NCBI GenBank assembly: GCA_028869495.1
Contig: JAGWRY010000285.1
Coordinates: 1-46,354 of the forward strand
Length of the DNA stretch: 46,354 bases
Source: Elusimicrobiota bacterium
GTDB taxonomy: Bacteria; Elusimicrobiota; Elusimicrobia; UBA1565; UBA9628
Direction of reading: 5' to 3'
A program made the translations under genes and the position numbers. Positions 8,210-46,354 of the stretch are shown here, piece after piece. The notes under the pieces are model-generated. The model saw only the letters and a list, made by a program, of their open reading frames with translations. It was not told the DNA's origin and made no database searches. The first letter of the stretch is position 1, and each line of letters starts with the position of its first letter.

Positions 8210-8857
8210 ATGCCCATGTCCGGGTGGGGTGCGTCCGTCTTTCACGCGCGCGCGCGATATAGAACGCTGATCCTGTCGGCGTTCTGCATGGCCTGCGCCG
8301 TCCCCCTGCGCGCCCAGGCGGCGCCCGCCGTGGACGCGTCCACCGTCGCCCCGGCCGAGCCGGCCTCCGTGGCCGAGGGGCACGACCTCGTCATCCGCCG
8401 TGACCGCGGCGCTAAGGCGCGCCTGCTGGCTCTGGCCGCGCAGGAGACCGATCCCAGCGCCAAGGCCAAGCTGATCTATCTGCTGGGCAACCTGCCGGTC
8501 AAGGACTTGGCGCCCGCCGACTTCGACGCAGCCTTGGCCGACCCCGACCCCGGCGTGCGCTTGGCGGCTCTTCTGGGCCTGGGGCGGATCCCCGGGACGG
8601 CGGCCGAGTCCCGGCTCGTGAAGGCCTTGTCCGACCCGAACCCTGGCGTGCGTCAGGGCGCCGCCTTTTGGCTCGGCCAGGCGGCCCATGCGGGTGCGGC
8701 GGCCGACCTGGGGCGGGCTCTGACGCAGGACCGGAACTCCGACGTCCGACTGGCCGCCGCCGAGGCGCTGTCTCGTTTGGGGACGACCGCCGCGCGCCGC
8801 GAACTGCGCCGGGGCGCCAACGACCCCGACCCGCGGGTGAGGCGATGGGCGAAATGA
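8210..8857 (+). CDS. Secreted HEAT-repeat (PBS-lyase HEAT-like) protein
   Basis: AAGGG lies 5 nt upstream of ATG 8210. The N-terminus is signal-like (LILSAFCMACAVPLRAQA-A). There are at least four HEAT-like repeats with the D-P-(D/N)-P-x-V-R signature: DPDPGVRLAALLGLGRI, DPNPGVRQGAAFWLGQ, DRNSDVRLAAAEALSRLG and DPDPRVRRWA. The stop TGA at 8855-8857 overlaps the ATG at 8854 of the next gene. Confidence 0.8.
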   Translation: MPMSGWGASVFHARARYRTLILSAFCMACAVPLRAQAAPAVDASTVAPAEPASVAEGHDLVIRRDRGAKARLLALAAQETDPSAKAKLIYLLGNLPVKDLAPADFDAALADPDPGVRLAALLGLGRIPGTAAESRLVKALSDPNPGVRQGAAFWLGQAAHAGAAADLGRALTQDRNSDVRLAAAEALSRLGTTAARRELRRGANDPDPRVRRWAK

Positions 8858-8964
8858 GCGAGCGCTCCGCGTCGTCCTTCTCCCGCCGGGCCGCCAAAGC
8901 GGCCGCGGCCGCGCTCCTGCTGGCCGCGGCGGGGCTGCTCCTGCGCTCGCGGCCGGCCGAGGCC
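8854..8964 (+). other. Sec-type signal peptide of the giant protein
   Basis: MSERSASSFSRRAAKAAAAALLLAAAGLLLRSRPAEA|TPS has a basic n-region, a hydrophobic core and an A-x-A site. Confidence 0.7.
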
Positions 8965-11900
8965 ACGCCCTCGACCGTGGACCTCAGCGTGAACTCCTCG
9001 TACGCGAACGCGCGCCAGGTCTTCAAGAACGATTGGGGCTATTGGGTCTTCTACAACGGCGGCGTCAATCCGACGGACTTCTCCTACGCGTTCAGCCCGG
9101 ACGGCGTCACCTGGACGCCGGAGGGGACCGTCTTCCATACGACGACGAACAACACGTTCAACGAGACCTCGGTCTGGTATGTGGCCGGAACCTCGACGGC
9201 CTACTCCGCCGCCGGCTCGGCGGCCGCCGATACCAACGGCCGCAATATCGATCCCATCTGGATCAACAAAGGCACCGTCAACGCGGACGGCACCATCAGT
9301 TGGGGCAACGAGGTCAAATACACGTACGGCGCCGCGGTGGCGGGCCGCAACGGCGACATCTACACCCAGCAGCCCTGCGGCGTCGCTTATTCCAATCCCT
9401 CGGGCGGCACTCCGACCCTGTTTGTCGGCACCGAGGGCAAGCAGGCGGGCCGCAACACCTGGGGCGCGATCGGCATGTCGCTGAACGCCGGCAGCCTCGC
9501 CTACGGCAACGCGGCCAGCCCGGGCCGCGGCGCGAACACCGCCGGCTACGTCCACTTGTCGATGGTGCCGGTCGAGAACTCGGGCACCTCCGCGCAGGCC
9601 CTTCTGCTGTTCTACGCGAGCGGCTCATTCTACACCTACCGCTACAACACGTCGAACAACTCGATGAACACGGAGCAGAACCCTCTCAGCACGACGATCG
9701 CCAACAACTACAACGCGGCCGCGACGATGATCGACAACCCCGACAGCCCCGGCGAGGTGCATATCGCCTACATCGACGCCAACGGCAACCTCAACTACAA
9801 GCGGCGCGCCTCGGGCGGGACCTACGCCGGCCCGTACACGCTGACCAGCGCGGGGACGGACGGCACCGCGTCGGCCACTCCCGTCGAGAACCCGTCGATC
9901 GGCCTGGTCAAGCTCGGCGCGGCCTACGAGGTCTACATCGTCTACCAGTCCACCGCGGGGACGCTCAGCTACTTCGTCGGCCCCTCGACGGCGACGTCGG
10001 CCGCGAACTTCACGCAGGTGCGCGACTGGGAGGTGGATACGCTCGGCTCCGTGCAGTGGCCGCAGACGCCGCAGACGATGACGGTCTCTCCGGACCCGCT
10101 CGGCGTCGCCTACACCGACGCCAGCGGCAACGTCTCCTTCGACACGATCATCACCTCCACGTACCCGGCGCCGACGATCACCAGCGCCTACCTTCAGAAT
10201 CCGAACTTCTACCTGACCTCCTCGACGTTCACGCTGGTGGTCAACGGCACCGGCTTCCTTAATTTCGGCGGGACCAAGTACACGCACGGCGCGATCCTGC
10301 AGGGCGGCGCGTCGCAGTCGGGCGTCTCGGTCACCTCGACCACTTACGTCAGCAGCACCCAGATCCTCATCTACGGGACCCTCGTGTCGCCGTCCGGCAG
10401 CTACGACGTGCGCGTGACCAACAGCGACTCCCAGTACGCGGTGCTGAGCTCGACCTTCAGCGTCCCGCCGCCGACCCTGACCGGGCTATGGGACCAGGAC
10501 GGCGGTCTCGTGTCCGGCGGCATCGAGCCGGTGATCCCGGAGGGCGTGGCGCGCAGCCGCCAGCTGACTTTGGTCGGCACGAACTTCGAGCATTGGTCGA
10601 CCGACTCGGCCTCGGTCACCGTTTCGGGAACCGGCATCTCGGTGACTTCGACGTCGTACGTGAGCCCGACGCGGTTCGTCGCGTACCTGAACGTTTCGAC
10701 GGCGGCGGCGGCGGGCACGTACGGCGTCACCGTGGTCAACGCCGACAACCAAGCCTCGGGCATGGTCTCGTCGACTTTCACGGTGACCGCGCCCAGCGCG
10801 ACCCTGCAGTGGCCTCTCCCCGGACTCGGGACCATCCTCAACAACGGGGTCTACTACTCGTCGGGCGTCGACGTGATCTCGGGGCAGGCCTCCTTCACGC
10901 CGAACTCTGGGCAGACGAGTCTTCTGACGTCGCAGGTCCGCATCAGCTCGGCGGACGGCACCGTGTGGAACGGCGCCGGCTTCGTCAACGCGGCCTTCGG
11001 CTTCCCGTTCCCCGCGTCGGAGAACCAGTGGCAGAACGCGAGCGCGGCGTCGCCGTGGCAGTATGCGGGCTGGCCCAACAACGCTACCGATCAGCAGGAC
11101 AACGCGACGTACTCGATCTCGACCCGCGCGCTCACCGGGGACCAGGGGTGGTCCGTCCCCTATTCTTCGTTCACGTTCCGCATCGACCGCTCTCCTCCGA
11201 CCGCGGGCGTCGCCTCTCCGGTGACTGGCGGAGCCGTCAACAGCATCCCGATCGTCCTCCTGTCCGCCTCCGACTACGGCATCGGCGTCTCCACCATCGA
11301 GGTCAACATCCAGGACGTCAACGACCACGCCTGGAACGGCACCGCTTGGAACGCGACCGCGGGCGCGCAGTGGCTGCCGGTCGGGCAGTTCGCGACGCCG
11401 GGAAATCCCGAGTCGGCGGCGCTTCCCAGCGGGCCCTACCTTCTGCCGACCTGGACGGACGGCACGACGTATTACTTCCAGCTGCGCTCGACCGACGGCC
11501 TCGGCCAGTTCGCGACGACGGCACGCTACCCCGTGATCTACGACGTGACCGCCCCGACGGTGACCGTGACGGCGCCGACGATGAGCGTCAGTTCGGCGAC
11601 GCCGAATTGGGTCAACTCGGTCACCGCGATCGCCGGAACCGTCTCCGACAACGTCACGGACACCCACGACCCCCGCAAGCTGTACGTTCAGATCGCGGAC
11701 CTGAGCGGCACGTTCCTGGAACCGGACCTCGTGACGACGACGAACACCGCAGCGTCGGCCACGAACGGCTATTGGTTCATCCCGCTCGATAACGGCGCCA
11801 ATAATTCCTGGTCGTTGAATCTTGCGGGTGCCCCGTTCGTCCTCGGTGACGAGTACCGCGTCGCCGTCTACGTCTGCGACGGGGCCGGCAACTGCACGGG

Positions 11901-41900: not shown

Positions 41901-44900
41901 GACGCCGACGTACCTGTACGTCGCCTTCGACGTCTCGCCGTCGGCGAAGTTCTCGCACCCGGCGCTGAACCCGCCGAACGAGGTCGTCGGCGTCAACGCG
42001 CCCGACCCGACGCGCTTCCATCTCCTGCCGGCCACCGCCGGGCACCAGGCGATCTTCGTCGCCTCGAACACGGTCGCCAGCCCGACCTTCGTGCTGACGC
42101 CGACGGTCAACACGGTCAAGGTCCAGTTCGACCAGCTGTCCGGCAACTACGCGTACCAGAACGACAAGAACGTCGCGATGCTGCGCATGACGATGAACAC
42201 CGACCGCAACACCGCGATCGTGCAGAAGATCCGCTTCGACCGCATCGGCACGTCCGGATCGCTCGACAGCGACATCCCGGTCCTGAAGGTCTGGGCGGAC
42301 TCGAACGGCAACGACCTGTTCGACACGGCCGACTCGACGCCGGGCGCCGCCGGCGACTACCCGTACCTGCTCTCCTACGGCAACGAGACCTTCAGCACCG
42401 GCACGGTCACGATCGCGCTGAAGAAGCCGATCCTGGTGACGACGTCGCCGGCCGCGTACTTCGTCACCTACGACATCTCGCAGTTCGCCGCGGTCGGCAA
42501 CGGCGAGGGCATCCAGGTCGCGGACCCGAGCTACGTGACGGTCCAGGTCCCGAACGCCGTCTCGTTCACGACGCCGACCTTCCAGTCGAACCCGTACCTG
42601 GCGATCAAGAAGGTCACGTCGCACGTGACCCTCGGCGTCAACGACATCGCGCAGAACGTCGTCGGCGTCACGCAGGCCGAGCAGAACGTCGGCTTCCTGC
42701 GCTTCAACCTGACCACCGACATCGCGCTCGCGCCGTGGCGCTCGATCCGCCTGGAGCGCGGCGGCGGCTCGCAGGACACGAACTACCCGCTGGGCCGCAA
42801 CACGAACGTGAAGTTCGTGCGCGTGTACAAGGACATCAATCAGAACGACACGCTCGACTCCGCGGACATCGACATCTCGGAGGTCAACACGACCGTCGAG
42901 GTCGCGGTGTCGAGCGCGACCCAGCCCCCGTTCGACCTGGTCGTCGCCTCGACGCAGGGCTTCCCGATCGACAACGTCGGCAATCCGCTGCCCGGCTGGA
43001 TCTACGTGAACAACGCCGAGCTGATGCAGTTCTCCGGCCCGGGCTGCCAGACCGCGTTCACGCCCGGCGTCGACAACTTCACCGGCAAGCCCTGCTTGAA
43101 CATCGTCCAGCGAGGGGCCGTGCTCGGCTCGACATCGACGCCGCACCTGGACGTCTCGGTCGGCGCGCCGGCGCGCAAGGTGGACCTGTTCGACCAGACC
43201 AACGACGCGAACGTGCAGACGCTGGTCACGCTGAACTCGGACCAGTACATCGGCCCGACCGCGCAGACCTTCTTCGTCGCCTACGACGTCGGGGACGCGG
43301 CCGTCGCCAACGACCTGATCAACGTGACGATCCGCGACGCGTCGTGGCTCGGCATGCCGGCCGGCGACATCGTGACGCCCGACCTTCGGGTCGGCGTCAC
43401 GCGCCCGAACCCGCTGGGCACCAGCACGACCAGCTATCCGTTCGTCGGCAGCAACGTCGCGATCAGCCCGATCACCCTGCAGGTCAGCGGCTTCTCGGCC
43501 GCGCCGAACGGCGCGGGCCAGGGCGACGCGAACGTGCCCGTCCTCCAGCTGGACATGCAGACGACGCAGAACTTCGTCGACGTCGCGCAGATCCGGCTCG
43601 ATCAGCTGGGGACCTTCGCGACCTCGTCGGTGACCTACACGGGAGACGGCGACGCGTCGGCGGTCAAGGTCTGGCTCGACAACGGCGACCGCGTGTTCAG
43701 CCCGCTCAACGACACGCTGATCGGCCAGATCGCGGTCTCGACGAACGGCGCGTTCTCCAACGGCGTCGCGCTGGTCAACCTGAACGTGAACTCGATCCCG
43801 TACCTGACGGTCTCGACCTCGCCGGTCGTCCTGTTCGTGTCGGCCGACATCGGCTACACGGACCGCACCGGCGGCTCGACGCTGAACCACTCGCTCGGCT
43901 TCGAGCTCGCGAAGTTCAACGACCTGCTCGCGCCCAACGGCGCGCCGCTGGTCGCGGCTCCCGACCCGGTCCTCCAGCCGCCGATCCAGTCGAAGACCCT
44001 GCTGATCGCGCCGCTGACGGTGCCCGCGGTGTCGATCAGCTCGGCCCTGCCGCCGGTGATCGTCACGCGCGCCCAGCCCGGCGTGCCCGCCGTCGCCGTC
44101 GGCTTCCCGGCCTACGCGGAGCTCAGCCTGTCCTGCAACAACGGCAAGGACCCGTCGAACCCGCGCAACAACATCTGCCTGGACGCCAACAAGGACCCGA
44201 TCCCGGACATGACGAAGTGGATCTGCCCCGACGGCACGCCGTGGTGCGGCAACCCGGGCTGCACGATCACGAATTGCGGCGGCTCGCCGCCGCTGATCGA
44301 CGTCAACGGCGACGGGCGTCCGGACAACTTCTCGATCGGCGAGAGCACCGTGCCCAACCAGGTCTCGCTCCTCGGCGACGGCACGCCGTCGACCGACATG
44401 ACCGGGACCGGGATCCTGGACGTCGACGTCAACCAGGACGGCATCCCCGACGTCGTGCTGTTCTCGCCCGGCTCGACGAAGCCGCAGTTCCGCATCAGCC
44501 TGGATCCGGCCGACCCGGCGAACCTCGCCAAGACCGCGCCCGACCCGGGTCAGGGCCTGGCGCCGACGTCCTGGGCGCCGAGCGCCAGCCAGCTGAACTT
44601 CAATCTGCCGATGATCGGGACCTCGGGCTACTACCAGGTCGCCGTCGGCCAGTACTACGACGATCCGATCGGGGTCACGCACAAGTGGTCGACCGTCACC
44701 GTGACCGGCGTGGCGGGCCTGAGCGCCGCCGCGTTCCGGGCGAAGGCCGTCGGCGCCCCGATCACGTCGGCGACCCTGAACCAGCTCGTGCTCGGCGTTC
44801 CCGACGTCACGCGCCTGACCCAGGCGCTGGCGCAGGACACGACCTACTTCACGGTCGCCGACGCCTCCGTCCTGCGCCTGCCGGGCCTGGTCTGGGTCGG

Positions 44901-45804
44901 CAGCGAGATCATGCGCGTGCAGCTCGACGGGAGCGTCAAGAACCAGCTCGACGTCATCTACCAGGCCGGCGACCCGCCGCCGTACGACGGACGCGGCCTG
45001 CGCGGATCGGCGCCGATCTCGCACACGTCGGGGGAGGTCGTCTCCGACAACGCGGCGATCCTGTTCGCCCAGTACGTGTCGGCGCTCGGCGCGACGTCGC
45101 CGCCGCAGGCGATGTTCGTCTACCGCGTGGACCCGCTCGCGCCGACGACGCCCGGACAGGCGACGCCGCTCGAGCAGGGCAAGCCGACCTACGCGGTGAA
45201 GTGGACGCCGTCGAAGCAGCCGGTCTCCGGCGTCTCGCAGTACGAGGTCCAGGAGCGCGGCGGCGACCCGAAGGACCTGGCCGCCAACGTGATCTGGCGC
45301 ACGATCAACATCATCCCGTCCCAGCTGACGACCTACAACGTCGGCGACCCGACCTACCCGGGCGAGGCGCCCCGTCCGACCGGCGACTACTTCAGCTACC
45401 GCGTCCGCGCGATGAGCGGCGCCGGCGTGCCGTCGGCCTGGTCGCCGGTGGCGCCGGCCGCCAACACCGGCCAGACCTCCTCGATCATCTCGGGCGTCAG
45501 CAACTTCCCGAACCCGTTCGACTCGCGCAAGGGCGGCAACGAGGGCCGCACGCAGATCGCCTACACGCTGAACGCCGACGCGGACGTGACGATCTCGATC
45601 TACGACGAGCTCGGCTATCTGGTCAAGACGATCGGCTGCGGGGCGGGCACGCAGGGCGGGCAGGCCGGCATGAACTTCGTGCCGTGGGACGGCCGCAACG
45701 ACGCCGGCGTCCTGGTCGCCAAGGGCGGCTACATCGCCCGCATCCGCGTGAAGTCCCCGGGCGGCGAGGCGACCGCGATCCGCAAGATCGGCGTCATCCA
45801 CTGA
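8854..45804 (+). CDS. Giant secreted repeat protein (12,316 codons): putative surface adhesin/fibre
   Basis: One uninterrupted frame with strong G/C third-position periodicity throughout. The track ORF starts at 8668, but that stretch overlaps the HEAT gene. The plausible starts are ATG 8854 (ATGA overlap with the upstream stop) or ATG 8845. The protein has a signal peptide, modular Ig-like repeats, an FN3 domain and a T9SS-type C-terminal domain. Composition is Thr/Ser/Ala/Gly/Asn/Val-rich, and cysteines occur almost only in close pairs. Confidence 0.9.
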   Translation: MSERSASSFSRRAAKAAAAALLLAAAGLLLRSRPAEATPSTVDLSVNSSYANARQVFKNDWGYWVFYNGGVNPTDFSYAFSPDGVTWTPEGTVFHTTTNNTFNETSVWYVAGTSTAYSAAGSAAADTNGRNIDPIWINKGTVNADGTISWGNEVKYTYGAAVAGRNGDIYTQQPCGVAYSNPSGGTPTLFVGTEGKQAGRNTWGAIGMSLNAGSLAYGNAASPGRGANTAGYVHLSMVPVENSGTSAQALLLFYASGSFYTYRYNTSNNSMNTEQNPLSTTIANNYNAAATMIDNPDSPGEVHIAYIDANGNLNYKRRASGGTYAGPYTLTSAGTDGTASATPVENPSIGLVKLGAAYEVYIVYQSTAGTLSYFVGPSTATSAANFTQVRDWEVDTLGSVQWPQTPQTMTVSPDPLGVAYTDASGNVSFDTIITSTYPAPTITSAYLQNPNFYLTSSTFTLVVNGTGFLNFGGTKYTHGAILQGGASQSGVSVTSTTYVSSTQILIYGTLVSPSGSYDVRVTNSDSQYAVLSSTFSVPPPTLTGLWDQDGGLVSGGIEPVIPEGVARSRQLTLVGTNFEHWSTDSASVTVSGTGISVTSTSYVSPTRFVAYLNVSTAAAAGTYGVTVVNADNQASGMVSSTFTVTAPSATLQWPLPGLGTILNNGVYYSSGVDVISGQASFTPNSGQTSLLTSQVRISSADGTVWNGAGFVNAAFGFPFPASENQWQNASAASPWQYAGWPNNATDQQDNATYSISTRALTGDQGWSVPYSSFTFRIDRSPPTAGVASPVTGGAVNSIPIVLLSASDYGIGVSTIEVNIQDVNDHAWNGTAWNATAGAQWLPVGQFATPGNPESAALPSGPYLLPTWTDGTTYYFQLRSTDGLGQFATTARYPVIYDVTAPTVTVTAPTMSVSSATPNWVNSVTAIAGTVSDNVTDTHDPRKLYVQIADLSGTFLEPDLVTTTNTAASATNGYWFIPLDNGANNSWSLNLAGAPFVLGDEYRVAVYVCDGAGNCTGGDGQNISVGDYDGSATDPPPAFIGFFKFDGNPPRSGRIFPTDSARPNAFGGPYSGSPVTSLDTLYGTAVDGVGESGVQREEYQLYDSSTNAYWFSTSLAPESSAYGHSLPGFYSLNVGQQAPWNVAGTTTTPAWQVWEATGIPWTSYVPSIEGNYFAFYSRAVDFANNFEVSPSSVGFIFDESSPTTGVSYPSALTYSQQLTTISGTSLDQPASNAGLFDLHVGIQRLSDGQWWTPGAGGSWNATRNDFAQPMAVGVSTWSFSLPLAFWTSIGQADHFSLYAWARDNVQPETFSSTPSVTNVESSTTLKLAFNYEVVPPSSTISSPVDQVWYSSTSPSDLPQVAGTANDNPAVNDAGVASMQVEIRDENTCPSCQYWNETTKSWQGTSVFNTVGFINPNWNFPMTNLTPNLTSGHVYRVRSKARDASVDVNGLPNGTYESPPDIVQSQQQTPTPYIDTHFFFWDTTPPTSISTFPANGATVNAVPDVAGTVTDGPGSFNAGIGTTYVAICQDSAGSIDYTHCLTAVSGGSWLAGPTWFQASPGPDWSLNLPSVPWSTNSFYHVIVRSTDSVNNMEVPLAAATNSSDHVRFQYTGGATSGHINSPSPTDTTFPFYTPIALTTLSGTAQGNSGVQIQLEDTDDALYYDGTNWVAVSTWVPNLPSAIVTGNWSYTFGGTWETNHNITANLRVCNALGTSCSATLDTENFVMDSSAPTITVGWPPSPYANAAEVRTASGTVVDPTAPGQSTSLNTGSVHFRIVRLKDNDEWSVPLSTFVAPPGTDLTATPLGGGLFDYTTTYMSSNLMFEDGYQYQVKLYAADKATNAGSLAGSPFRYDVSYPTATMTVPVQGQYLNSLATIAGTMADTPPNLSDSNQAASGVAQVQVLVQNLTPGSPSRNNYYDETTHGFNDFSPHWINATTYASTFTYTDANLDAALVSGSYSIAVRAIDAAGNVQYDFSTPGSSFTVRMDKDAPTIALTQPSLPAYTPAAAAAAGVQGTAADPVVGGVASGLLTGGIDVQLWYLQAGTSYYWTGSTFTATITTEPANGTTWNLTSPPTAIQYAWPGDMTFYARARAHDASVLADGTVSPSTGNVSGWTPVTSFIVDGTPPVSTMTGITDGSFIPSLSSLAGTANGVLSGLQDVQVRITTNPATGPDWNGSAYTFAGVPIWNSATAPLTNWTYSSLSGAFVDGQKYYLYSRAIDNAGNMQTTPTAYAVTIDATKPLIGISFPNGAGNPPYSNNVESVRPSTYVAGTVSDPGALASGPAQVWLAISSGTPGAAGNSWWSDATRSFSLGAQPLGAPVYSTQVYLSGNSWQYAPSQLGPALVDGVNYYVYAYAVDVAGNSTSGSPALQNFLYDVSRPTSTVSVPLNGGNYNASLTQLSGAAVETGSNPSGVYKVYVAVQHTAGGLAPLAWWNWSTQAFDPSLGATPAFPGLGWAQVASTTVSGLTTLAWSTAVPAGMLESSATYVVAPMAEDQATNQQANPTQAGAGATFRYDTQAPTATITTPSLAVQYYNASTLGQMTGAADDQLYGASGLASVQILLKLETSGAYWNGGTSGTSADWDGTGTGYTQWRTVTGLSSWTQAYPPTSTMESRRLRLWVRATDNAGNTSATPTQTQLTNNQNADGSAALDFYYDTLPPLSSVTYPPTASNFAPTTISGTAADQDAILEPSGLKTVYLRLLKSDGTYWNLFTPGWTGTGLFDNTGVSGSLNPWSYSFPGGTFQDGYKYTVNSSAIDFALNQENAYSTYTFVVDLTTPTSAVSWPSDGAYVSSATVVVAGSADDLFCDFHGAQCVPGQRSFESGILPSSVTVAIADISVSTNWWDGSAFASASPVWFAGSFAGPASSGTWTWTAPTLTTNHFYKVVSRVADAAGNLQNVVSTNSFVYDTTPPVSLATAPTGTISGISAIYGTASDAAPGKLSVVRLSIQETGGTGAAHINDYWNGSAWQASLVELSSGVVGPLISGTTYAWTMDASAVAWDDQSNYAVRARAVDAAGNVEAAHGTDDITFSLQTPPASVTLTQPPGPDGQQYGPNSAVPVTAITGTALNARPVDGIQLVLQRLTSPTSYWYDPTASWTNVSTTYTPVNVSGGNWSQSLNSPYVVDNASYSLTVTPYNTADIAGTPVTRVYYFDKTVPLAAITGPAAAPCAGADACLKSLSTIAGTATDPGSVAPTSILYSGLKYRLKDNVSGQYWNGTAFQAAAADLTTDPGAFNQVGATYNWSTSTLAGASLQDGADYTILAHAADEAGNDQLAEASMAKFTFVYDTTPPTGFMVQPSSGEVYLNLSTISGTSSDPGGTYANNKKSDVKTVFLQIYDPKNDICWNESSSQFNAPCPHFFDTASSAPWTYSNAALTPLLASGRAYTITAEAVDNAGNVQSVFGVPTSSRTLYVDKNPPLAAFAQPVDGAAYQSGALNGGSALSGTAADPEAALYPGNDALQDDQAVIWYLSGGTSYYYTGVVGSNGTKFSSNTVESASWQSLIGTDTWKMIFSGADWAPAVSGTDTRYYAKVRATDNARDVSGAIVGNTGSTFSPGTSLVSFIVDDTPPQSAVTTPAPGSFIQSLGAISGTSNSDLSGAATYYFRVWYVVAGSSYYWTGSGWGPANVQTQLPIQVTGSTGTVDWTYPGTLPGQSAPTITQPDNTTYGLAIQAQDKAGNLETPTTAQVVLDRVGPSIGISTPMAAAPDYGAARPLATLSGTTFDQPAGTQKVELNISEVSDSTILYWDGSVWNTSGPNWVVATGTNPWTYPAPTWIGNKQYHVQARATDNAGNLSPSEPIIAFVYDVNVPSTTIAVPNTPYYPLSWQGTALSGTAVDWLNNPTVEAKSGLAAVQIAITDPSGNYWNGAAFQPAPVWRYASTTTADPSSWQYPPSNPAGDVLPTWQDAQNYTVRSRAIDQTGNIESPGQSYTFTFDAQAPTTTITDPISGQYATFFALSSGTYAAEAGGLSQLLIAVQDKLGNWWNGSAWGAFNSATCWLPGTIYASSWTYTDAALKTFINDPVTNTVPKSYTFYARGIDTAGNDNRGPAQPSSGGSTLFVDFFPPTAGFSHPANGATLAGNVVPITGTASDQALDTPTGVGIQGVQLKVIQIDSLNNHNYWNGSAWVGGDQGFNIGTTLTGGAQTVMTFNNLGTAIGEAAFADGYRYQVVAQAHDLLNQFDQTYATTTFLVDLSTPSVALVIPKVSYISTNTFTFSSGTFLDPVVGGNLPSGVSKVYVQVQDLSQPPHTVYPATYWDETSGWITDGTGKDVSTATVYQSTWSFASLPPDWTRADAAGADGRVYALRVYAQDAAGNTGTVNPDVTVASTTLVFDGTPPSSQVTSPANGTSSQSLATITGTAADVLVNSSSSDVKSVFVSVQDNQPGDPYYAHYWDASLGAWSAGTTVVWNPASYVPATGVWSIGFPGIDANLVNLSHYVIQSSATDNAGNAQYPTPGYAQVQFVPPPSVVTVGTPQSLQFYNNLVGFGGTANGVTTQVNLQLSRADTGQCWSGSVSIGWVACTNVSTATQVVYPAGGNWSYPQGGTVLPDWGTINNSSPTVTVWGTNYAGINGTQVPVQFFIDRSSPTSSVSYPVAGTFVSAPPTLTGASNDPYYGTTGAGVKTVSVHLKRLDLNYYWDVVTSTWVAAAVASTATYDSVAKTWSFASSTPTLTWMNGLTYSLDVFGEDKAQGGTSGNVETPAAPITFGYDDSRPTIYVSTPPAAPLRQGQATLAVWTGTAAVTAPDYLSKVQVRVYQNGSPNLYANPTGALAFNLPDSIPGNSDLAWFGATTSNGWLNWSVSSGVPWVEGSTYTIVARSVNAAGTVSVPYSSTTIVYDDLPPQSTVASPANGAYAAAPLPTLSGATSDQPSVNPGTVIEADVRLRRLSDGQYWNGFNGWTSTPYDMGLAFVSVYPSSWAVTTGEMATIRSYLTSGTSYYATVSALDDAAGGGNREAWGSPQSSTFTYDATAPLTSVSAPLDGSFVNALSAVGGTGFDNVLVSTVQISLQDATTGKCYETLGAAFDGACPGWFAAAGSTASWSYAIPGSPWTQADQYVLSSSATDQAGNLQTAVSSAAFTYDVAAPTAAVTTPAAGFLNVTQSSVTGTEIDSPAGILSVQLALSSAAGAGGWYNGTDFSGASAVRFDTSSYVLTTPNKWSWNLPANTTDGQNYLLRVYSTDKAGNSRSQDFTFLYDATPPVASITFPTNGGALSGSVVTISGGSSDPAGPGGGASSVSTVTVSIQSLTSGQCYVAGGGFTSPCPNDIPAAGIPGSWSYTPTPNPFASGSYYAVTARATDNAGNVQSVFAVGTSSVTFNYDTAIPTVAISSPAAGAGDRENAASLAQFIGSADETVPSNLAEVDLRVRKGGSVYADPANSLNFTQLNGDLAWFVANTTTTPAWTGWSVSSGTLMSFTAGTQYDVIARARNKAGTYSTTYATNTFVYDDQAPQTGVSAPGNASYVNSLSALNGTAVDQPTGTGGVVTAVNVRFKRLSDGYYWTGIPGSWSSTQLTLDALRGVQVFTSTWSLAAGNMPQPTDLTSGDSYYVTTSGIDDVQGGGNVEAWDSPRGSTFTYDVTAPRTSIVAPAGAYLNTLPSLAGSGFDNVLLSTVALNLEDATAGQCYNPAVNSFNLACPAWFAASGSTASWSFAFPTQPWTQAHQYVLSSSATDAANNLQTAVSSAAFTYDVLAPTAAVTTPASGFLNATQANLAGTATDSPAGVGSLRVALSSAAGAGGWFDGTSFASASPVPYSTNSYTYGAPDVWGASAQQASLTDGQNYLLRVFSTDRAGNQRSQDFTFLYDATPPVASIAFPTNGGALSGSVVTISGGSNDPVGPGGGASAVSTVTVSIQSLTNGQCYVDGGGFTSPCPNYIPAGGIPSSWSYTPTPNPFASGSYYVVTARGEDNAGNVQSVFVVGTSSATFNYDTAVPTVAISSPAAVAGDRENAASLAQFIGSANETVPSNLAEVDLRVLKVSGNVYADPANSLNFTQLNGDLAWFVANTTTTPAWTGWSVTSGTLMSFQAGYQYDVIARARNKAGTYSTTYATNTFIYDDQPPQTGVSVPSNASYVNSLPALTGTAVDYPTGTGGVVTAVDVRFKRLSDGYYWTGIPGSWSSTLLTLDALRGVQVFPSTWSLNSGNMPQPTDLTSGDSYYVTTSGIDDTQGGGNVEAWGSPRGSTFTYDVTAPLTAVAAPADGSFKNSVPSVGGSGSDNVLLSTVALSLQDATAGQCYNPAVNSFNKACPYWFAAQGSTASWNYTFFPSQPWTQAHQYVLSSSGTDAAGNFQTAVASGAFTYDVLAPTAAVTTPAAGFLNASNADLAGTAVDSPAGVGGLQVALSSAAGTGGWWNGTDFSGASAVPYSTNSYTYGAPDTWGASAHLASLTDGQNYLLRVFATDRAGNQRAQDFTFLYDATPPVASITFPADGGLAKGAVTITGGSSDPAGPGGGFSGASTIAVSIESVSNGLCYVFGGGFSAPCPNFIPAGGVPSNWSFAPSPNPFTNGASYIALAQATDNAGNVQSVFAAGISSATFTYDNTVPTVQIQIPATARERSLAFLAGTAADVIPTGLQNVQLRIRDASGLSRYYDPGNGSFDLNPATQGDLAWFVANTTSTPAWTWWSVSSGAIVYNSGDVYEVDARALNKAATYSTTYSTWTGSYDVDFPTTSVSLPVAFSTISALPTLSGALGDLPSNNPGTVSNVRVRLIRLSDGKYWTGGAWSAVPSVLDNTSGVSVFASSWTLSSNLPLNNDTLGGLQNGDSYYVTTSGLDDSNPGGNAEPYDTPVYASTFTVDLVGPTAAITGPNNGAVLSSLAQINGTAADALAGISNASQVQVAIGEVSPGNGCWNGQVTGGTFTATGCPIFYPITNPGLGGTFAGGVWSMNAPPLTTQYTYRVWVRGQDNATPVGNYTAAVNVSSITFTYNTNLPTIAIASPANGAALNAPFSVSGSASDNFGVAYASVAYQEADTNLYWDPASSTFSSVTPKFIGAALAGSAPNYTFTEAAPTPAASTGRHYNVYPYVENNAHTSQVGSAITITWDTTPPASAVVTPATATYRNALTLSTGTASDPGASASGVAGTQLQIRRVSDNICWNGGAWAAACTSAASWLTPAAGTSWSVNSGLPPVNNLTSGFQDGLSYEFTSRAYDYAANTQTALTANLVHIDLSSPTVAIGLPANGSVFNSLPTITGTAADAAPGQVAFPQVSICDIVLAKCWNGSAWANSSVDLWNVSPDSSSATDGSAFIWHYDTSGIVWPNRLNGLRVDARATDAAGNYTMTSSTFSFSNVAPQSEVSYPPLGNPTYSSMTAITGTALDTVLPVTSVGIKMWYLSGGTTYYWTPATPHWQNTDPGFSTINGANGPAATVFGWSYDSVQIPDFASPGTVNYPWKDGTNDGADGHEFHIITQAIDTAGNVQTVYSTHTFVFDNVPPTSAPTAPIPNAAYNTLTTLSGTMADDVSSVTAAEVSIEDVSSNLWFDGSSFASGVEKWLPILPSNLYQSSWVFTNGALSWATQHHYIVMSSATDSVGNVQTVVDASSFTFDTDPPTSQVTNPQDLLTYTDQKILLGNSSDPYGANGSGVYPGASPTWQAGKIEVAVFRDTAPLISGGPIAYPISDNTGFYWNGSTWVAAAGGPIWVPATFNDAFGNWQYAGLVCPNPNPTNQPCWVHGDPNIVWSRVTDNAGNLQSVIQAGPRFFISGIATHFSITVSSDPSTVGNLVQVTVTALDSQNNVASSYGSTVTFAMIDGTGGPETQGSSQVPDLTHGLPSNYQFTTGVGGDNGSHTFSIILRKAGSRILRVQDASNPSLAGSINLNTLNAAAQQILLIADTNASCDGGNQKPGPGIATSPVGRIGTPAQYAAGQSFYYCAEVTDAFYNLVPSSATTIWVSDDDPNNDSLSPDHSIVFTGSTTFTWTYVTADTTPGHTLTVSSAGVSNPAASPVPIVGAAATQLMALLPGETAVPGKFAVQPYGKTGTPSPVEAGRNYLVKVFSVDPYYNVDPTVAWPVTANVNSDSNTVVPAGQTLSGGEADFTFQPVTAGTQTVQAQTTSLLGSASTYYTPNPFQVWWSTPTKLQLIVAGQTADPGLAPYTANPTTGGRSVSAPATLTAGVTTTITVNLVDDYYNVTKGTTPFATQTSSFTMPLVQLDFLNDPNIQGRGFAPSPFQRTLNAGTTGFSFFAVTRNAGLQLRVSDTGLTGTTYSTDTVTGIPVIANTPVDLLARVPGETYAEGTAAGKTGAPSVLTAGTSYTVDVRAVDLYNNLAPDGRQVKLTANDVYANVPPAQALALGQTSFSNDVLPSAATGNLVISAVDNDVITPKLTTSAVSGITVVPNLPDRMIVLLNGQSLVPGKVVAPFGVTGVPVASTAGVTFNATVYATDLRYNVVNTVNKPSILVGSDDPFAGSLGSFAMTNGAAPATNLVLRTAGTRTLTAADGGGAPSLSAGASGGFTLLPNNPTKLRVLLPTETAVGGSTGNGRTGSAYSIQAGFSFNVEVDLADTFWNLTPGATQDVTLTSDDPYATIVPTSQVVSGSATFTVTLKRAGTSHLIAQMTNPLSLPTVAADTSTAITVQPGIPTRLLTILPGESFSQGSPTGKSGTPSVQTAGANFPVTVGVVDAYFNLVPGHAVDVLLGTPTDPYAPAIATAPVNVGLGYTAPMNVTLLTAGATHYLTAHDDSGSGLADDPQSSTFTVDAAAPVGLQLVLPGETAVPGSGDYPNGGITGSVSTPTAGVPFTATINLVDKYMNVYTTLGPNPPSYLYTSDPYDIDPSTASLINGSLPLTVTLVSKSTNTILQALPEGGAPAVCTGNPPTNACLAESPAADAGPFKVYASTAVALQIILPGETQHPGKCAQPACRPLGPTEGAPGVDGAPNSYIVGSPAITATVYLVDAYFNPVSEIPPGPNQDSNPVAVMPTVQLGFPLETNVSFSTPTAAALVDGSRQFTFSPLTANVLYHLSVSTTAASASSWPTSLSNDFAVYPGVAHHLAWSNLPSTVTAGVAFSGTLSAYDQFGNVLSTGPNAYSRNVTFTQVAPSADPNQAPVFSPTDNLTFSSATDGGVKNLLSFATLKNAGTDYVHAADTLSNAVNTAVPLYSSDPPILVNPGPPDSLKVAPTNDTVVSAGSSLSPGAQAITGQVTDAFDNPITAGATVFLQVVDTTGTPGHLALDYGSGAIDVGVSTQIVADSLGQIGGTPKIYYYVSSHAGDVARVWAGTMTAPGNLSPYIATQKDITGALTTTGGPESQIVFLSSPTSAVVGIVNAGSGASYVIQRLDDFGNVTTQSQTDLKLQIVQTAVHTLKGYALGTFGTVGDYGFRDATNSQFINAVSILSGQSQAAFQYHDKMSSYSGPSPSSNTAEDGRPGYWSLQVIEGSTTVKASTQLEMDPDNVIKVDFGNARNEETAGKVLDPAGVVAVFRPQLQDEFSNPTVATQTVTVTLSTVTRSASRVNDYAAFSLSSGAFAGSRFSAPAFFATTNTVTIPLGQYQTTFYYLDTTASEQYGYAGGTKPVLGLSAPGLFSSQQPVVVDPDRIDVIAVSTGAGQQLQAGVPSSVFSLETRDDYGNPSPVLSGQDDFGLGYVEMQLQSDSSGQVQFSTTTNSLSDFVSTSAIAYLPINQSTTNFYLIDTLLTNPGSTHTVTAAGITQPGWAVASASYTVISGPPAQIGWSTPPRRLIAGTTTQYVAGVATDTVVSAQLLDQYGNVTTSTSPYVIRYTSLGDQTFAGIDPSQVIVATAPSSFWQDIYTGHLDVVIPGGAGLSKAPMYFWSRLAGGATIYAQAILGGTNVFPQISQVSQITPGPATYLTLTHPYDANNPLKVGVPGTITVSAHDLFGNIATGDPQNGNYFTDTVDFGSSGSSTTVTLLDLTHSTTYHVFLSTEAGVFPNLGVVDTYQEVLKVSATDYDNPSIYGFTNDGSRTGLPAASVDRSSGDVELAGVVVTPVDLAPESDPPPTGPIPPTKISFGVTKKVLNQGDGMTPSSPDPIPMLRLSLDIQATNPSALTANLRSLRVQSRPEGNLNNTHIAELGLWYDSNGNGVFDPPPSGDTLIATGTYDGSGSWFFGDATWGETNIDLAYPAESTLTSSPKNYFLTVRVASTGYALNELPASFGLMLPTPSNITLSPASQVGMALNNFAVQTTTSDVEREPAQINVLPTDINAWWQPTSMALSTYPYVDQGAAAVGVLKLQVWADAFSGVLSQVVVNRAGTGPDSDISRVRLYLDTQPNQITVPGDGLFEPAIDKEIGEATFPPGDTHQTTVVISSPTGVNGTITTSTNTYFLVYDIDPSANPGDTIGINLFASNIIPLSGNGQIKPFSPIASTQVPVEATPDLVVLTDWDTQGTSSTTGLGVNSVASKLVQNDKNDVVAKLTLRANSGSASWTGLKLDRWLPSTVVGGSGSYNPLDAQINKASDVDNIKVWVDQNGDGLLDVSTDAQVSPLNTIVHNFPTAPLSAPLYSTGPLTGAEVDVTGILNMFPPDNPMPSDTFNRLIINDAQTDELQKEVVYCYGVDLTNNKYTNCKRGQEGTTPRDYAAGTIISGPARIPIESLIGGTGQAIGTSKTDYFVTYDLDPLATVSNQSFLGLAIPDTSYFQIIAPKELSTQNVGLNPIGLTQSFVSNLSEYPDAVHVVSTDTIDPSVGPYLQQKSTVAVAVLNLQTNVADALMRWILVTATGTATAGGQAAPDVDQVSLWYDATNSGVFNQATDVLVGTGTFGDYQGLPLVAQINMTTPVQIVTANRATQPQRYFIAYHISPTALPTDPITQQPRTLGVAVLATSLPQNSPTTDNQYLNALSLPNYYDPTSPLPYTSKMRAIIPAPQHLQVQATPVFSSSSGTFTAPILLNAIPTETAGQIDPFWLLSSTQGLPTPALGTTDYLLINDEIVGYTGFGAAPGTITGVIRGSLNTVPAAYSSGTYVSPTISQGDTNMAVLRLKLWSTQPDDVTPGFQIELSGLDLNRTLPIGMNGDDADLTSIKIYKSNDGTYHRDPVSGQDVSDVFLGASTFGAPPEAAGRVLVPINDPGLGAPGYALITSTPTYLYVAFDVSPSAKFSHPALNPPNEVVGVNAPDPTRFHLLPATAGHQAIFVASNTVASPTFVLTPTVNTVKVQFDQLSGNYAYQNDKNVAMLRMTMNTDRNTAIVQKIRFDRIGTSGSLDSDIPVLKVWADSNGNDLFDTADSTPGAAGDYPYLLSYGNETFSTGTVTIALKKPILVTTSPAAYFVTYDISQFAAVGNGEGIQVADPSYVTVQVPNAVSFTTPTFQSNPYLAIKKVTSHVTLGVNDIAQNVVGVTQAEQNVGFLRFNLTTDIALAPWRSIRLERGGGSQDTNYPLGRNTNVKFVRVYKDINQNDTLDSADIDISEVNTTVEVAVSSATQPPFDLVVASTQGFPIDNVGNPLPGWIYVNNAELMQFSGPGCQTAFTPGVDNFTGKPCLNIVQRGAVLGSTSTPHLDVSVGAPARKVDLFDQTNDANVQTLVTLNSDQYIGPTAQTFFVAYDVGDAAVANDLINVTIRDASWLGMPAGDIVTPDLRVGVTRPNPLGTSTTSYPFVGSNVAISPITLQVSGFSAAPNGAGQGDANVPVLQLDMQTTQNFVDVAQIRLDQLGTFATSSVTYTGDGDASAVKVWLDNGDRVFSPLNDTLIGQIAVSTNGAFSNGVALVNLNVNSIPYLTVSTSPVVLFVSADIGYTDRTGGSTLNHSLGFELAKFNDLLAPNGAPLVAAPDPVLQPPIQSKTLLIAPLTVPAVSISSALPPVIVTRAQPGVPAVAVGFPAYAELSLSCNNGKDPSNPRNNICLDANKDPIPDMTKWICPDGTPWCGNPGCTITNCGGSPPLIDVNGDGRPDNFSIGESTVPNQVSLLGDGTPSTDMTGTGILDVDVNQDGIPDVVLFSPGSTKPQFRISLDPADPANLAKTAPDPGQGLAPTSWAPSASQLNFNLPMIGTSGYYQVAVGQYYDDPIGVTHKWSTVTVTGVAGLSAAAFRAKAVGAPITSATLNQLVLGVPDVTRLTQALAQDTTYFTVADASVLRLPGLVWVGSEIMRVQLDGSVKNQLDVIYQAGDPPPYDGRGLRGSAPISHTSGEVVSDNAAILFAQYVSALGATSPPQAMFVYRVDPLAPTTPGQATPLEQGKPTYAVKWTPSKQPVSGVSQYEVQERGGDPKDLAANVIWRTINIIPSQLTTYNVGDPTYPGEAPRPTGDYFSYRVRAMSGAGVPSAWSPVAPAANTGQTSSIISGVSNFPNPFDSRKGGNEGRTQIAYTLNADADVTISIYDELGYLVKTIGCGAGTQGGQAGMNFVPWDGRNDAGVLVAKGGYIARIRVKSPGGEATAIRKIGVIH
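8965..10150 (+). other. N-terminal ~390-aa beta-propeller-like head domain with one Asp-box (S-x-D-G-x-T-W)
   Basis: SPDGVTW lies at 9094-9114. Blade-like strands recur: VHIAYIDANGNLNYKR, VYIVYQSTAGTLSYFVG, LGVAYTDASGNVSFDT and LLLFYASGSFYTYRY. The fold assignment is inferred, and the boundaries are approximate. Confidence 0.4.
10165..10790 (+). repeat. Two IPT/TIG-like Ig domains
   Basis: PAPTITSAYL..FTLVVNGTGF..VSVTSTTYVSSTQILIYGTL..GSYDVRVTNSD. and PPPTLTGLW..LTLVGTNFE..ISVTSTSYVSPTRFVAYLNV..GTYGVTVVNAD.. share the typical IPT/TIG strand pattern. Boundaries are approximate. Confidence 0.55.
23350..25170 (+). repeat. Five-module super-repeat, copy 1 (607 codons)
   Basis: Starts at YDDLPPQS. 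The unit order A-B-C-D-E is repeated in phase at 25171 and 26995. Modules D-E are about 90% identical at nucleotide level (by eye) to copy 2 D-E. Modules A-C are much more diverged. Confidence 0.85.
25171..26994 (+). repeat. Five-module super-repeat, copy 2 (608 codons)
   Basis: Starts at YDDQAPQT. Modules A-C are about 85-90% identical in protein (hand count) to copy 3 A-C. Several identical runs exceed 40 nt, e.g. GTGCGCTTCAAGCGCCTGTCGGACGGCTACTACTGGACCGGCAT. Confidence 0.85.
26995..28812 (+). repeat. Five-module super-repeat, copy 3 (606 codons)
   Basis: Starts at YDDQPPQT and ends before YDVDFPTT (28813). Its D-E modules are more diverged from copies 1 and 2. Confidence 0.85.
31921..38650 (+). 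repeat. Array of about 17 invasin/Big-like modules (~120-145 aa), many opening with an L-(L/V)-P-G-E-(T/S) motif
   Basis: There is a sharp switch of repeat type at ...RFFISGIATHFSITVSS. Recurrent motifs include LLPGETAVPGK..GKTGTPSPVEAGRNYLVKVFSVDPYYN, VPGETYAEGT..GKTGAPSVLTAGTSYTVDVRAVDLYNN and ILPGESFSQGSPTGKSGTPSVQTAGANFPVTVGVVDAYFN. Later units read ..AG..F..T(L/V)SA(Y/H)D(Q/L)FGN. The module count comes from hand segmentation. Confidence 0.6.
38651..44030 (+). repeat. Eight larger (~170-290 aa) beta-sandwich-like modules with a W-x-D-x-N-G-(N/D)-G-x-(F/L)-D type loop
   Basis: Each unit has ..(V/M)L(R/K/Q)L.., then ..I..(V/L)x(L/V)(W/Y)xDxNG(N/D)GxFD.., then ..YF(L/V)xYD(I/L)... Examples are LGLWYDSNGNGVFDPP (about 38899), IKVWVDQNGDGLLDVS (about 40060), VSLWYDATNSGVFNQATD (about 40873), LKVWADSNGNDLFDTAD (about 42289) and VKVWLDNGDRVFSPLND (about 43666). 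I do not know the family name. Confidence 0.55.
44134..44472 (+). other. Six-cysteine knot followed by FG-GAP/VCBS-like D-x-(N/D)-x-D-G-x-x-D loops
   Basis: The sequence reads CNNGKDPSNPRNNICLDANKDPIPDMTKWICPDGTPWCGNPGCTITNC, then IDVNGDGRPDNF and VDVNQDGIPDVVLF. Confidence 0.45.
45133..45459 (+). other. Fibronectin type III-like domain
   Basis: P..P..YAVKWTPSKQPVSGVSQYEVQER..TTYNV..YSYRVRAMSGAGVPSAWSPV shows the typical FN3 W..(Y/F)-x-(V/I).., Y-x-(Y/F)-x-V-x-A and S-x-W-S pattern. Confidence 0.6.
45475..45801 (+). other. T9SS-type / FlgD-Ig-like C-terminal sorting domain
   Basis: NFPNPFDS..TQIAYTLNADADVTISIYDELGYLVKTI..GMNFVPWDGRNDAGVLVAKGGYIARIRV..IRKIGVIH matches the pattern I know for Por_Secre_tail/FlgD_ig domains: PNPF..I.Y.L....V.I.IYD..G..V......G.....WDG....G..V..G.Y. 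It ends exactly at the protein C-terminus. Confidence 0.75.
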
Positions 45805-45829
45805 TCGACGACGGCCCGCGCGCGCCCCT

Positions 45830-45853: not shown

Positions 45854-45880
45854 GTGACTGTCAATAAGGAAAAAGTTAGA

Positions 45881-46354
45881 ATGGGAGCCATGACGGCGAC
45901 CCTGATCGCTCTCGCCGCGGCGCTTCTGTGCGGATCGCCCGCGGCCGCCGCGCCGGCCCCCGACCTCGGGGCGGCCGCCGCGCTGACGCGCTCCTCGAGC
46001 CCGGCCGCGCGCCGGGACGGCGTCCGCGAACTGGGCCGGATCCGTTCCGCGGCGGCCGCGGCCGCGATCGCGCCGCTGCTGTCCGACGGGGATTGGCGGG
46101 TCCGCCAGGCGGCGGCGGAGGAGCTCTCGACGGCGGGCGGCCCGGCGGAACTGCCGGCCCTGATCGGCGCCCTGAAGGATCCCGCCGCCTCGGTCCGCTT
46201 CGCGGCGGCCCGCACGCTGGGCGCCCTGCGCCGGCCGGAGGCCGCGGAGGCGCTCGCGGGCCTCCTCGACGACAAGGATCCCGCCCTGCGTCGGACGGCC
46301 ACGCGGGCCCTGGGCCGCGTCGGCGGCGCGGACGCGCGCGCCGCGCTGATGCGC
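45881..46354 (+). CDS. Second secreted HEAT-repeat protein (3' end outside the window)
   Basis: This ORF is not in the ORF track because it has no stop inside the window. AAGGA lies 9 nt upstream of ATG 45881, and the frame stays open to 46354 (158 codons). It has a signal-like MGAMTATLIALAAALLCGSPAAAA. HEAT-like repeats are present: DGDWRVRQAAAEELSTAG, DPAASVRFAAARTLGALR and DKDPALRRTATRALGRVG. Confidence 0.75.
   Translation, partial: MGAMTATLIALAAALLCGSPAAAAPAPDLGAAAALTRSSSPAARRDGVRELGRIRSAAAAAAIAPLLSDGDWRVRQAAAEELSTAGGPAELPALIGALKDPAASVRFAAARTLGALRRPEAAEALAGLLDDKDPALRRTATRALGRVGGADARAALMR

Follow-up and report, generated by a model that had tools for sequence, protein, structure and literature searches.

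A putative T9SS-sorted giant surface fibre of 12,316 residues encoded by an Elusimicrobiota bacterium

[quoted passage not shown] SprB comprises about 6,500 amino acids (aa), and its gene is paired with sprF. In Porphyromonas gingivalis, cargo carrying a type-A C-terminal domain (CTD) follows a route that involves the SprA/Sov translocon, the sortase PorU and an anionic lipopolysaccharide anchor. A further point of comparison is offered by the type I adhesins with immunoglobulin (Ig)-like repeats (MpIBP/MpAFP, LapA, RTX). The present analysis concerns a stretch of 46,354 nucleotides (nt) from an Elusimicrobiota bacterium (contig JAGWRY010000285.1, positions 1 to 46,354, assembly GCA_028869495.1), the whole of which is referred to below as the window, and in particular the single giant open reading frame (ORF) that occupies most of it and predicts a protein of 12,316 aa, hereafter the giant protein. 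On balance, we think that this protein is a Sec-exported surface fibre which is sorted by a T9SS-like CTD and carries a glycan-binding head at its distal end, a reading drawn from sequence and predicted structure.

Like SprB, the giant protein combines an N-terminal Sec signal with thousands of residues of beta-sandwich repeats and a sorting domain of the FlgD_ig/CTD superfamily, and in 35 orthologous loci of its family a gene for an outer-membrane beta-barrel protein adjoins the cargo gene. [quoted passage not shown] No gliding or T9SS core genes were seen beside the giant gene. With the type-A cargo of P. gingivalis it shares a CTD that aligns to the terminal 85 to 105 residues of PorU (6za2 among the structures), of PorZ and of an M6-like protein, and, as with the PorU/PorV/PorQ/PorZ complex of that species, PorV/PorQ-family proteins are encoded beside CTD-bearing cargo in the giant's relatives; in contrast to that cargo, the giant's CTD falls below the cutoff of model TIGR04183. 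The long tandem Ig-like extender stalk, with ligand-binding domains at one end, is a feature in common with type I adhesins, and the profile of the type-A stalk modules (Table 1) gave weak matches to the PDB entries 4p99, 2yn3 and 5irb. Type I adhesins, however, have no Sec signal and possess C-terminal RTX repeats and an N-terminal retention region, whereas the giant protein has a signal peptide and no RTX array. A type I/RTX adhesin was ruled out on the grounds of this signal peptide, of only two isolated GGxGxD matches in the middle of the protein, and of the lack of ABC/MFP/TolC genes in the window.

The preliminary description of this DNA had placed a sorting-type domain exactly at the C-terminus, and this assignment held: the CTD of the window scores 38.3 bits with Pfam FlgD_ig (gathering score 27) and its tail resembles those of PorU and PorZ. 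When 14 orthologous CTDs were compared with NCBIfam models, all of them aligned to the last 85 to 105 residues of PorU (best E 3e-9) and of a T9SS-dependent M6-like protease, and 12 to the PorZ tail (best 3e-10). At E<1, all 14 matched TIGR04183, the model of the type-A sorting domain (best 4e-6), and none of the 14 matched the type-B model TIGR04131. Thirty-five of 115 columns are invariant among these orthologues, and the domain sits at the extreme C-terminus, no residue following the match in 77 of 80 loci. PDB matches to the CTD were FlgD and PorU (6za2), and Pfam Por_Secre_tail and CHU_C were not listed for the window CTD. A search for other proteins with the giant's CTD in 760 kb of related loci returned orthologues only. 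FlgD itself consists of an N-terminal domain and the FlgD Ig-like domain, measures about 140 to 300 aa and is encoded within the flagellar operon; a FlgD hook-cap protein was rejected for the giant, since the match is limited to the Ig-like domain, within a protein that is 12,316 aa long and bears a Sec signal. An LPXTG or PEP-CTERM-style anchor was likewise ruled out, the tail being IRKIGVIH. According to a review, T9SS C-terminal domains are sometimes labelled as members of the FlgD_ig superfamily (PMC11611037).

The genes adjoining the more distant orthologues provide a second line of evidence. In 35 such loci (e.g. L052, L083, L098, L110 and L114), a gene 250 to 900 nt downstream of the giant orthologue encodes an outer-membrane protein of the PorV/PorQ family to which TPR repeats are joined (NF033709, 112.9 bits, cutoff 90; L110, 6425-8083). 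The next gene, in 22 of the 35, encodes a membrane protein with FliG middle and C-terminal domains as well as TPR repeats (L110, 8158-10218), which is an unusual architecture. Locus L014 comes from a close relative (TopA 86%); there, the giant gene is missing from its syntenic position, and the interval that separates purA from the gene of the small membrane protein (17115-20323) instead encodes a 772-aa NHL-repeat protein with a T9SS-like tail, overlapped by the gene of a 297-aa PorV/PorQ-family protein (142.7 bits against 90). L014 and the distant loci thus indicate that PorV/PorQ-type partners of tail-bearing cargo exist in the phylum, and that two or more kinds of cargo bear the tail. The gene that follows in L014 has an N-terminal match to a Bdellovibrio 'mosaic adhesive trimer'. 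As a first clustering of downstream ORFs was confounded by shadow ORFs in GC-rich DNA, targeted tblastn was used for these comparisons instead.

Several observations weigh against a T9SS-sorted, glycan-binding fibre. The window CTD reaches only 15.8 bits with TIGR04183 against a cutoff of 23, flagellar FlgD models scoring similarly; the T9SS has been described as confined to the FCB superphylum; and the nearest 19 loci to that of the window have a HEAT-repeat gene, and no PorV-like one, within 6 kb downstream of the orthologue. The preliminary description had stated that the window holds no secretion-system genes, and indeed none (SprA/Sov, PorK/L/M/N, PorU or PorV) was detected in its 46 kb; a lead on export is provided by the PorV/PorQ-family gene beside the orthologues. 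In addition, the head is without a conserved sialidase catalytic set and its fold match is moderate (TM about 0.5), and the orthologous loci were cut at 6 to 10 kb, so the lengths of the orthologues are lower bounds. The first three of these observations would equally suit a surface or secreted giant whose CTD is merely a structural FlgD_ig module, export then proceeding by type II secretion, by way of an uncleaved N-terminal signal anchor, or by an unknown system specific to Elusimicrobiota. We hold this explanation to be unlikely, in view of the position of the CTD at the very end of the orthologues, of its alignment to the terminal residues of PorU, PorZ and T9SS cargo, and of the PorV/PorQ-family genes located directly after 35 orthologues and beside another CTD cargo in L014.

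For a T9SS-sorted surface fibre, the signs of an extracytoplasmic location are the signal peptide, an isoelectric point (pI) of 4.3, paired Cys in many modules and the lack of any other transmembrane segment. The Sec-type signal peptide announced by the preliminary description is readable in its n-, h- and c-regions, the N-terminus being MSERSASSFSRRAAKAAAAALLLAAAGLLLRSRPAEA/TP, where the stroke stands for the predicted cleavage site (aa coordinates are counted throughout from the Met at 8854). Its h-region is the most hydrophobic 17-aa stretch in the whole giant protein, and a hydrophobicity scan revealed no transmembrane segment beyond it. The n-region (aa 10-16, 8881-8901) contains S-R-R-A-A-K, a partial twin-arginine-like motif; Tat export was nonetheless rejected, as the export of a folded 1.28-MDa protein is generally implausible. 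According to the proposed mechanism, the precursor would cross the inner membrane via Sec, after which the CTD would be recognised by a PorV-type outer-membrane partner and the protein carried through the outer membrane or placed upon it. Of the mature fibre, the conserved base at the C-terminus would remain beside the cell. Tandem Ig modules extend by about 4 nm each, and the Ig-like stalk, with about 75 modules, would accordingly measure some 0.3 µm. At its tip the variable N-terminal propeller head would bind, or possibly cleave, a glycan on another cell or surface. More speculatively, the two secreted HEAT-repeat proteins encoded on either side could act as periplasmic escort or assembly factors. 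In the T9SS, PorV shuttles CTD cargo to the attachment complex (PMC11611037).

The head showed no Pfam, NCBIfam or PDB sequence match, whether searched as a single sequence or as a 15-sequence profile. Its AlphaFold2 (AF2) model (pLDDT 78, pTM 0.85) contains 29 predicted strands, which would fit six or seven blades, and in Foldseek this model retrieved the pseudaminidase 2w38, Neu2 and NanI together with the fucose lectins PHL, AFL and AAL, at scores (E 1e-8 to 1e-6, TM 0.44-0.54, root-mean-square deviation 7-8 Å) that denote fold-level likeness only. The six-bladed propeller sialidases (GH33, pseudaminidase) and the fucose lectins may resemble the giant head in its predicted fold, with one Asp-box-like motif, present here in a shortened form (SPDGVTW); they differ from it in that the head has neither a sequence-level family match nor a recognisable catalytic set, and stands at the tip of a 12,000-aa chain. 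The residues conserved among heads (R54, W64, F66, W87, H303, Y315, R317, Y364, Y373 and D430) do not reproduce the sialidase catalytic set, which consists of an Arg triad, a Tyr/Glu nucleophile pair and an acid/base Asp; sialidases of GH33 also have several Asp-boxes. From the model, we infer that the head is a glycan-binding propeller, with catalysis as a minority possibility. It is improbable that the giant protein is mainly a tethered enzyme, one whose propeller works at a distance from the cell as a sialidase-like glycosidase and not as an adhesin or lectin: the top fold matches are pseudaminidase, Neu2 and NanI, and R54, R317, Y315, Y364, H303 and D430 are conserved alongside the Asp-box-like motif, but sialidases give no Pfam or PDB sequence match, the Arg triad with its Glu/Tyr pair is not evident, fucose lectins of the same fold score about equally, and an unrelated head takes its place in locus L002.

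Relatives of the head are few. An exhaustive HMMER search of 1.84 billion representatives with aa 1-620 (the head and the IPT-like repeats) yielded 62 relatives only, about 25 of which match the head part, with the head placed directly behind the signal peptide. By tblastn, the first 285 residues of the giant protein gave weak matches in 3 of 50 TopA-related loci, and the head was found at 41% identity in related loci. A word-indexed homologue search returned no protein for the head (aa 1-560) and two for its 15-sequence profile, and a genome scan using head peptide patterns returned no relative. Because the exhaustive search and tblastn did find relatives (30-47% identity), the empty word-indexed result is a prefilter artefact and not absence; a composition rich in Thr, Ser, Ala and Gly had probably saturated the 8,000-candidate prefilter of that search. 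In L002, the large gene at the syntenic site (17211-22280) begins with an unrelated head and continues with homologous type-A modules, a difference that suggests head swapping; the fetched ORF ends in an out-of-frame Arg-rich sequence while another frame is still open, which points to a frameshift or an overlap artefact. To judge from these loci, the head of the giant family is variable.

In contrast to the head, the C-terminal 2,100 aa are conserved, which fits the distal head and cell-proximal anchor envisaged in the preliminary description. Using the last 701 aa as query, we obtained 19 homologues, every organism-named one being assigned to Elusimicrobia, Elusimicrobiota or Elusimicrobiales. 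Nearly all of the 19 are fragments on short contigs, and the intact C-termini end in ...IRKIGVIH; one contig carries a 2,093-aa ORF that runs off its start and overlaps a 1,065-aa ORF, and so represents a frameshifted large gene. A metagenome scan with the tail uncovered 223 relatives. In 76 of the best 80, the ORF that bears the tail stays open as far as the locus start, and it is at least 2,100 aa long wherever 6 kb of flank exists. In about 40 metagenome loci, on contigs with a GC content from 0.31 to 0.71, 2,100 residues align to aa ~10,100-12,316 of the giant protein as a single colinear segment with 36-70% identity, and one low-GC orthologue originates from an Elusimicrobiales genome. 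Since some 2,100 aa are colinear in these loci, the C modules form a fixed conserved base and not a freely expanding repeat. Judging by this distribution, the giant family is old and widespread among Elusimicrobiota lineages.

Neither the C modules nor region E matched an NCBIfam family, and neither the C-module profile nor region E found a usable PDB sequence match. A mini-domain of about 65 aa recurs four times, among the C modules and in the C-terminal region (aa ~10440-10520, 10845-10895, 11366-11430 and 11975-12040; ~40171-44973) with the pattern S-T-x-G-F-P ... E-I-x-x-Y ... R-G-x-x-G-T/S-x-x-x-H; it is kept in orthologues, and no family was found for it. The AF2 model of the last 701 aa has a pLDDT of 67 overall and of 80-90 in the FN3-like part, for which Pfam fn3 gave no match.

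The stalk between head and base is largely made of Ig-like modules (Table 1). The type-A array consists of 55 strong modules and one weak one, which match Pfam Big_13 (57.5 bits, 27 needed) and Big_3_2 (26.5-28.2 bits, 23.3 needed); as these matches are restricted to the C-terminal portion of the modules, the latter are regarded as distant members of Big_13/Big_3. In the PDB, the type-A profile weakly matched titin, an RTX adhesin, MpAFP RII and chain 2yn3, with E values of 3.5e-6 to 9e-3 over the whole sequence and no significance for any single stretch. Cys residues occur mostly in pairs, 3 to 15 residues apart (6 to 12 in many type-A pairs), at equivalent places of the Ig modules between aa 1008 and 8846 (~11875-35391), a pattern that would fit a single disulfide in each module, formed in an oxidising compartment. 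The 1.82-kb triplication is the sole recent duplication of an array that is otherwise old, and length variation is likely at this site. The modules with the D-x-[FY]-G-N motif (aa 8999-9817 by the motif) have it at intervals of 132-263 aa, five of the six sites being 132-148 aa apart; they show weak matches to the type-B HMM, and no Pfam or PDB match. Apart from Big_13/Big_3, FG-GAP and FlgD_ig, Pfam searches on pieces of 3,000 to 4,000 aa and on ten sub-pieces identified almost nothing.

Compared with the zones outlined in the preliminary description, these data are in close agreement. Its approximately 55 Ig-like modules correspond to the contiguous type-A array, its approximately 17 Big-like modules to the type-B and D-x-[FY]-G-N modules taken together, its 8 large modules to the 8-9 C modules, its Cys knot to the six conserved Cys of aa 11761-11808, and its FN3 zone to the FN3-like domain recognised by fold search. 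The 'IPT' zone calls for correction: two repeats are present, but Pfam TIG is unmatched and NCBIfam identifies them as a 'choice-of-anchor Z repeating domain'. No Pfam family matched aa 280-620 at E<=1, TIG included, and the IPT-like repeats had no PDB sequence match.

The conservation of the base also bears on a possible role as a structural component of the envelope, such as an S-layer-like coat or sheath element in place of a projecting adhesin, which would explain the conserved C-terminal 2,100 aa. Colinear conservation over contigs of such different GC content, the acidity of the protein together with its abundance of Thr, Ser, Ala and Gly, and the S-layer protein 7ptp among the fold matches of the C-terminal model speak for a coat of this kind. 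We nevertheless find it quite improbable, given that some 75 Ig-like modules arranged in tandem on one chain, with a distinct head at its end, have the layout of a fibre adhesin, that the head is variable, and that no S-layer family was matched in Pfam or NCBIfam.

As to the ORF itself, the preliminary description had presented it as a single uninterrupted frame of 36,951 nt filling about 80% of the window, with third positions dominated by G/C from end to end and with sensible termini, and therefore not an accidental open frame; the data bear this out. The frame (8854..45804, plus strand) has 12,316 codons, its sole stop is the terminal one (45802-45804), and it accounts for 79.7% of the window; the termini are those of a Sec-type signal peptide and of the FlgD_ig match. 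GC content by codon position is 0.57/0.54/0.97, with third-position GC (GC3) of 0.91-0.98 in each 3-kb block, a pattern shared with topA, purA and xerC of the same window. From the composition of the ORF, a stop would be expected every 53 to 56 codons, and a run of 12,316 codons without one has a probability of about 1e-96 to 1e-102. The frame is open from stop to stop from 8416, the earliest possible start being TTG 8668 and an alternative ATG lying at 8845; ATG 8854 is favoured over the latter because of a GGTGAGG box 11 nt upstream and of the ATGA overlap with the stop of the upstream gene, and the choice between them alters the protein by three residues, nothing more.

The longest other ORFs (4,045 aa on the minus strand and 5,049 aa on the plus strand) have their GC-rich position at codon position 1 (0.96-0.98), that is, out of phase, and are therefore shadows of the giant frame. 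Stop-free shadow ORFs of 3,674 to 5,049 codons lie over the giant gene at 15454-27591 (minus), 23709-38858 (plus) and 35278-46302 (minus); they arise from the GC3 of about 0.97 and might be mis-called as genes. At the DNA level, the only internal repeat is the triplicated unit of 1.82 kb (23288-29176), whose copies have nt identities of 79% and 70%, and the longest exact repeat within the gene is 55 nt, so that repeat collapse was rejected as unlikely, like mis-joining, on the grounds of this divergence. By its own coding signal, the giant ORF is a genuine single gene of a high-GC Elusimicrobiota bacterium. That it should be an artefact, either of chimeric assembly or of a frame that merely stays open in GC-rich DNA and is not one gene, is scarcely credible: 70% GC, shadow frames of 4,000-5,000 codons and database orthologues that are all fragments, one of them split by a frameshift, could be cited for it, but GC3 is in phase over the full length with the shadows out of phase, the modules are only 20-33% identical, no exact repeat exceeds 55 nt, orthologues occupy the expected positions for both ends of the gene, and the chance of a stop-free frame is about 1e-96.

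Table 1. Predicted features of the giant protein and of its immediate surroundings
Feature	Positions	Strand	Remarks
Promoter-like site	7354..7381	+	TTGACA, 16-nt spacer, TATACT, TG before -10; 11/12 matches vs 0 expected in shuffles; consensus match only
185-aa protein gene	7491..8048	+	Hydrophobic N- and C-terminal segments; no known family; same position in 19 related loci
215-aa HEAT-repeat protein gene with signal peptide	8210..8857	+	Pfam HEAT_2 E 6e-23; stop overlaps giant ATG (ATGA)
Giant ORF product	8854..45804	+	12,316 aa, 1.28 MDa, pI 4.3
Sec-type signal peptide (aa 1-37)	8854..8964	+	Basic n-region (SRR, K), Ala/Leu h-region, AEA/T cleavage motif; as read from the sequence
Head (aa 38-437)	8965..10164	+	All-beta; predicted beta-propeller with six or seven blades, like sialidases/fucose lectins
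Two IPT-like repeats (aa 438-645)	10165..10788	+	NCBIfam CoaZ_rpt_PGGG, 40.1 bits vs cutoff 30, two stretches; internal repeat
55 type-A Ig-like modules, ~125 aa each (aa 714-7741)	10993..32076	+	Contiguous, 20-33% mutually identical; many with Cys pair
1.82-kb five-module super-repeat	23288..29176	+	Tandem triplication inside the type-A array; 79%/70% nt and 69-81% aa identity; 606-aa period
~10 type-B Ig-like modules (aa 7784-9025)	32203..35928	+	Distantly related to type A
~6 beta-sandwich-like modules (aa 9026-9975)	35929..38778	+	D-x-[FY]-G-N motif, typical of invasin/intimin-type Big_1; Big_1 assignment from motif alone
8-9 C modules (aa 9976-11620)	38779..43713	+	~145-aa core with D-x-N-G-N/D-G-x-x-D Ca-loop-like motifs; ~65-aa mini-domain interspersed
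Cys cluster, six Cys (aa 11761-11808)	44134..44277	+	Kept in orthologues
Two D-x-N-x-D-G-x-x-D FG-GAP-like loops (aa 11816-11874)	44299..44475	+	Pfam FG-GAP 25.2 vs 22.1 bits; kept in orthologues
FN3-like domain (~aa 12096-12203)	45139..45462	+	AF2 model and Foldseek to FN3 tandems, E 2e-9
C-terminal domain (aa 12216-12316)	45499..45801	+	FlgD_ig/T9SS-CTD-like beta-sandwich group; ends IRKIGVIH
Promoter-like site before downstream gene	45854..45882	+	Putative
Second HEAT-repeat gene with signal peptide, start only	45881..46354	+	Pfam HEAT_2 E 6e-26; runs off window

The giant gene lies in an ordinary chromosomal context, being preceded by dprA, topA, xerC, an unassigned gene, purA, a minus-strand gene, the small membrane-protein gene and the HEAT-repeat gene. 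With TopA as query, 50 loci were collected, of which the top ~45 belong to metagenome-assembled genomes of Elusimicrobiota/Elusimicrobia, with TopA identities of 82-88% and a maximum of 88%. In at least 11 of these relatives, a large ORF opens about 5 kb downstream of topA(-xerC-purA) and is still open at the end of the locus, 3.3 to 5.1 kb further on; these syntenic ORFs match the IPT-like repeats and the first Ig modules of the giant with 26-42% identity. A HEAT-repeat gene is located directly before the large ORF in L004, L006, L018, L022, L030 and L035, and directly after the giant orthologue in the 19 metagenome loci closest to the window (among L054-L081). The promoter-like site at 7354..7381 may drive a three-gene operon formed by the small membrane protein, the HEAT protein and the giant gene. 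The minus-strand gene (6212-7225, 337 aa) has an N-terminal hydrophobic segment and coding-type GC3; it yielded no Pfam/NCBIfam match and no tblastn match in the 50 related loci, which all keep its neighbours, and it may be a lineage-specific insertion.

In terms of size, the giant protein joins the catalogued huge proteins (Omnitrophota giant genes; UniProt entries above 5,000 aa), a class that is mostly metagenomic and fragmented in assemblies; unlike the Omnitrophota giants, which are implicated in cell-wall degradation, it shows no sign of such a function. The preliminary description had called bacterial proteins above 10,000 aa very rare, and they are uncommon but not exceptional, as 7,478 predicted proteins from a single database, each 10,624 aa or longer, were retained in one survey, and Elusimicrobia have been listed among the phyla prone to huge proteins. 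Size alone is thus not novel, and giant Ig-repeat surface proteins are a known class. The huge-protein surveys do not describe the giant family, its conserved base, its head or its CTD/PorV link, and we found no paper, subscription journals being outside the coverage, that connects Elusimicrobia with the T9SS, PorV or FlgD-type tails or that describes the family.

The giant gene represents an intact copy of a family that appears in public databases only as fragments, annotated as 'hypothetical' or as 'FlgD Ig-like domain containing, partial'. More than 4,000 of its residues (the head, the C modules and region E) are without family assignment and could seed new domain families. The T9SS-like tail and the adjacent PorV/PorQ-family genes suggest that CTD-dependent sorting extends beyond the FCB superphylum. 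In the cell-cell interactions of Elusimicrobiota, the head is a candidate for the part of a glycan receptor. That the family is kept from 31% to 71% GC, and that all its named members are Elusimicrobiota, speaks for a core role in this phylum, of which almost all knowledge comes from metagenomes. As a tentative and more far-reaching proposal, Elusimicrobiota may possess a CTD/PorV-type sorting pathway whose flagship cargo would be a conserved fibre of more than 1 MDa. Its base of about 2,100 aa would be fixed, its stalk would vary in length and its glycan-binding heads would be interchangeable, and for these ultrasmall cells it might be the main organelle of attachment, whether to partners, to hosts or to prey.

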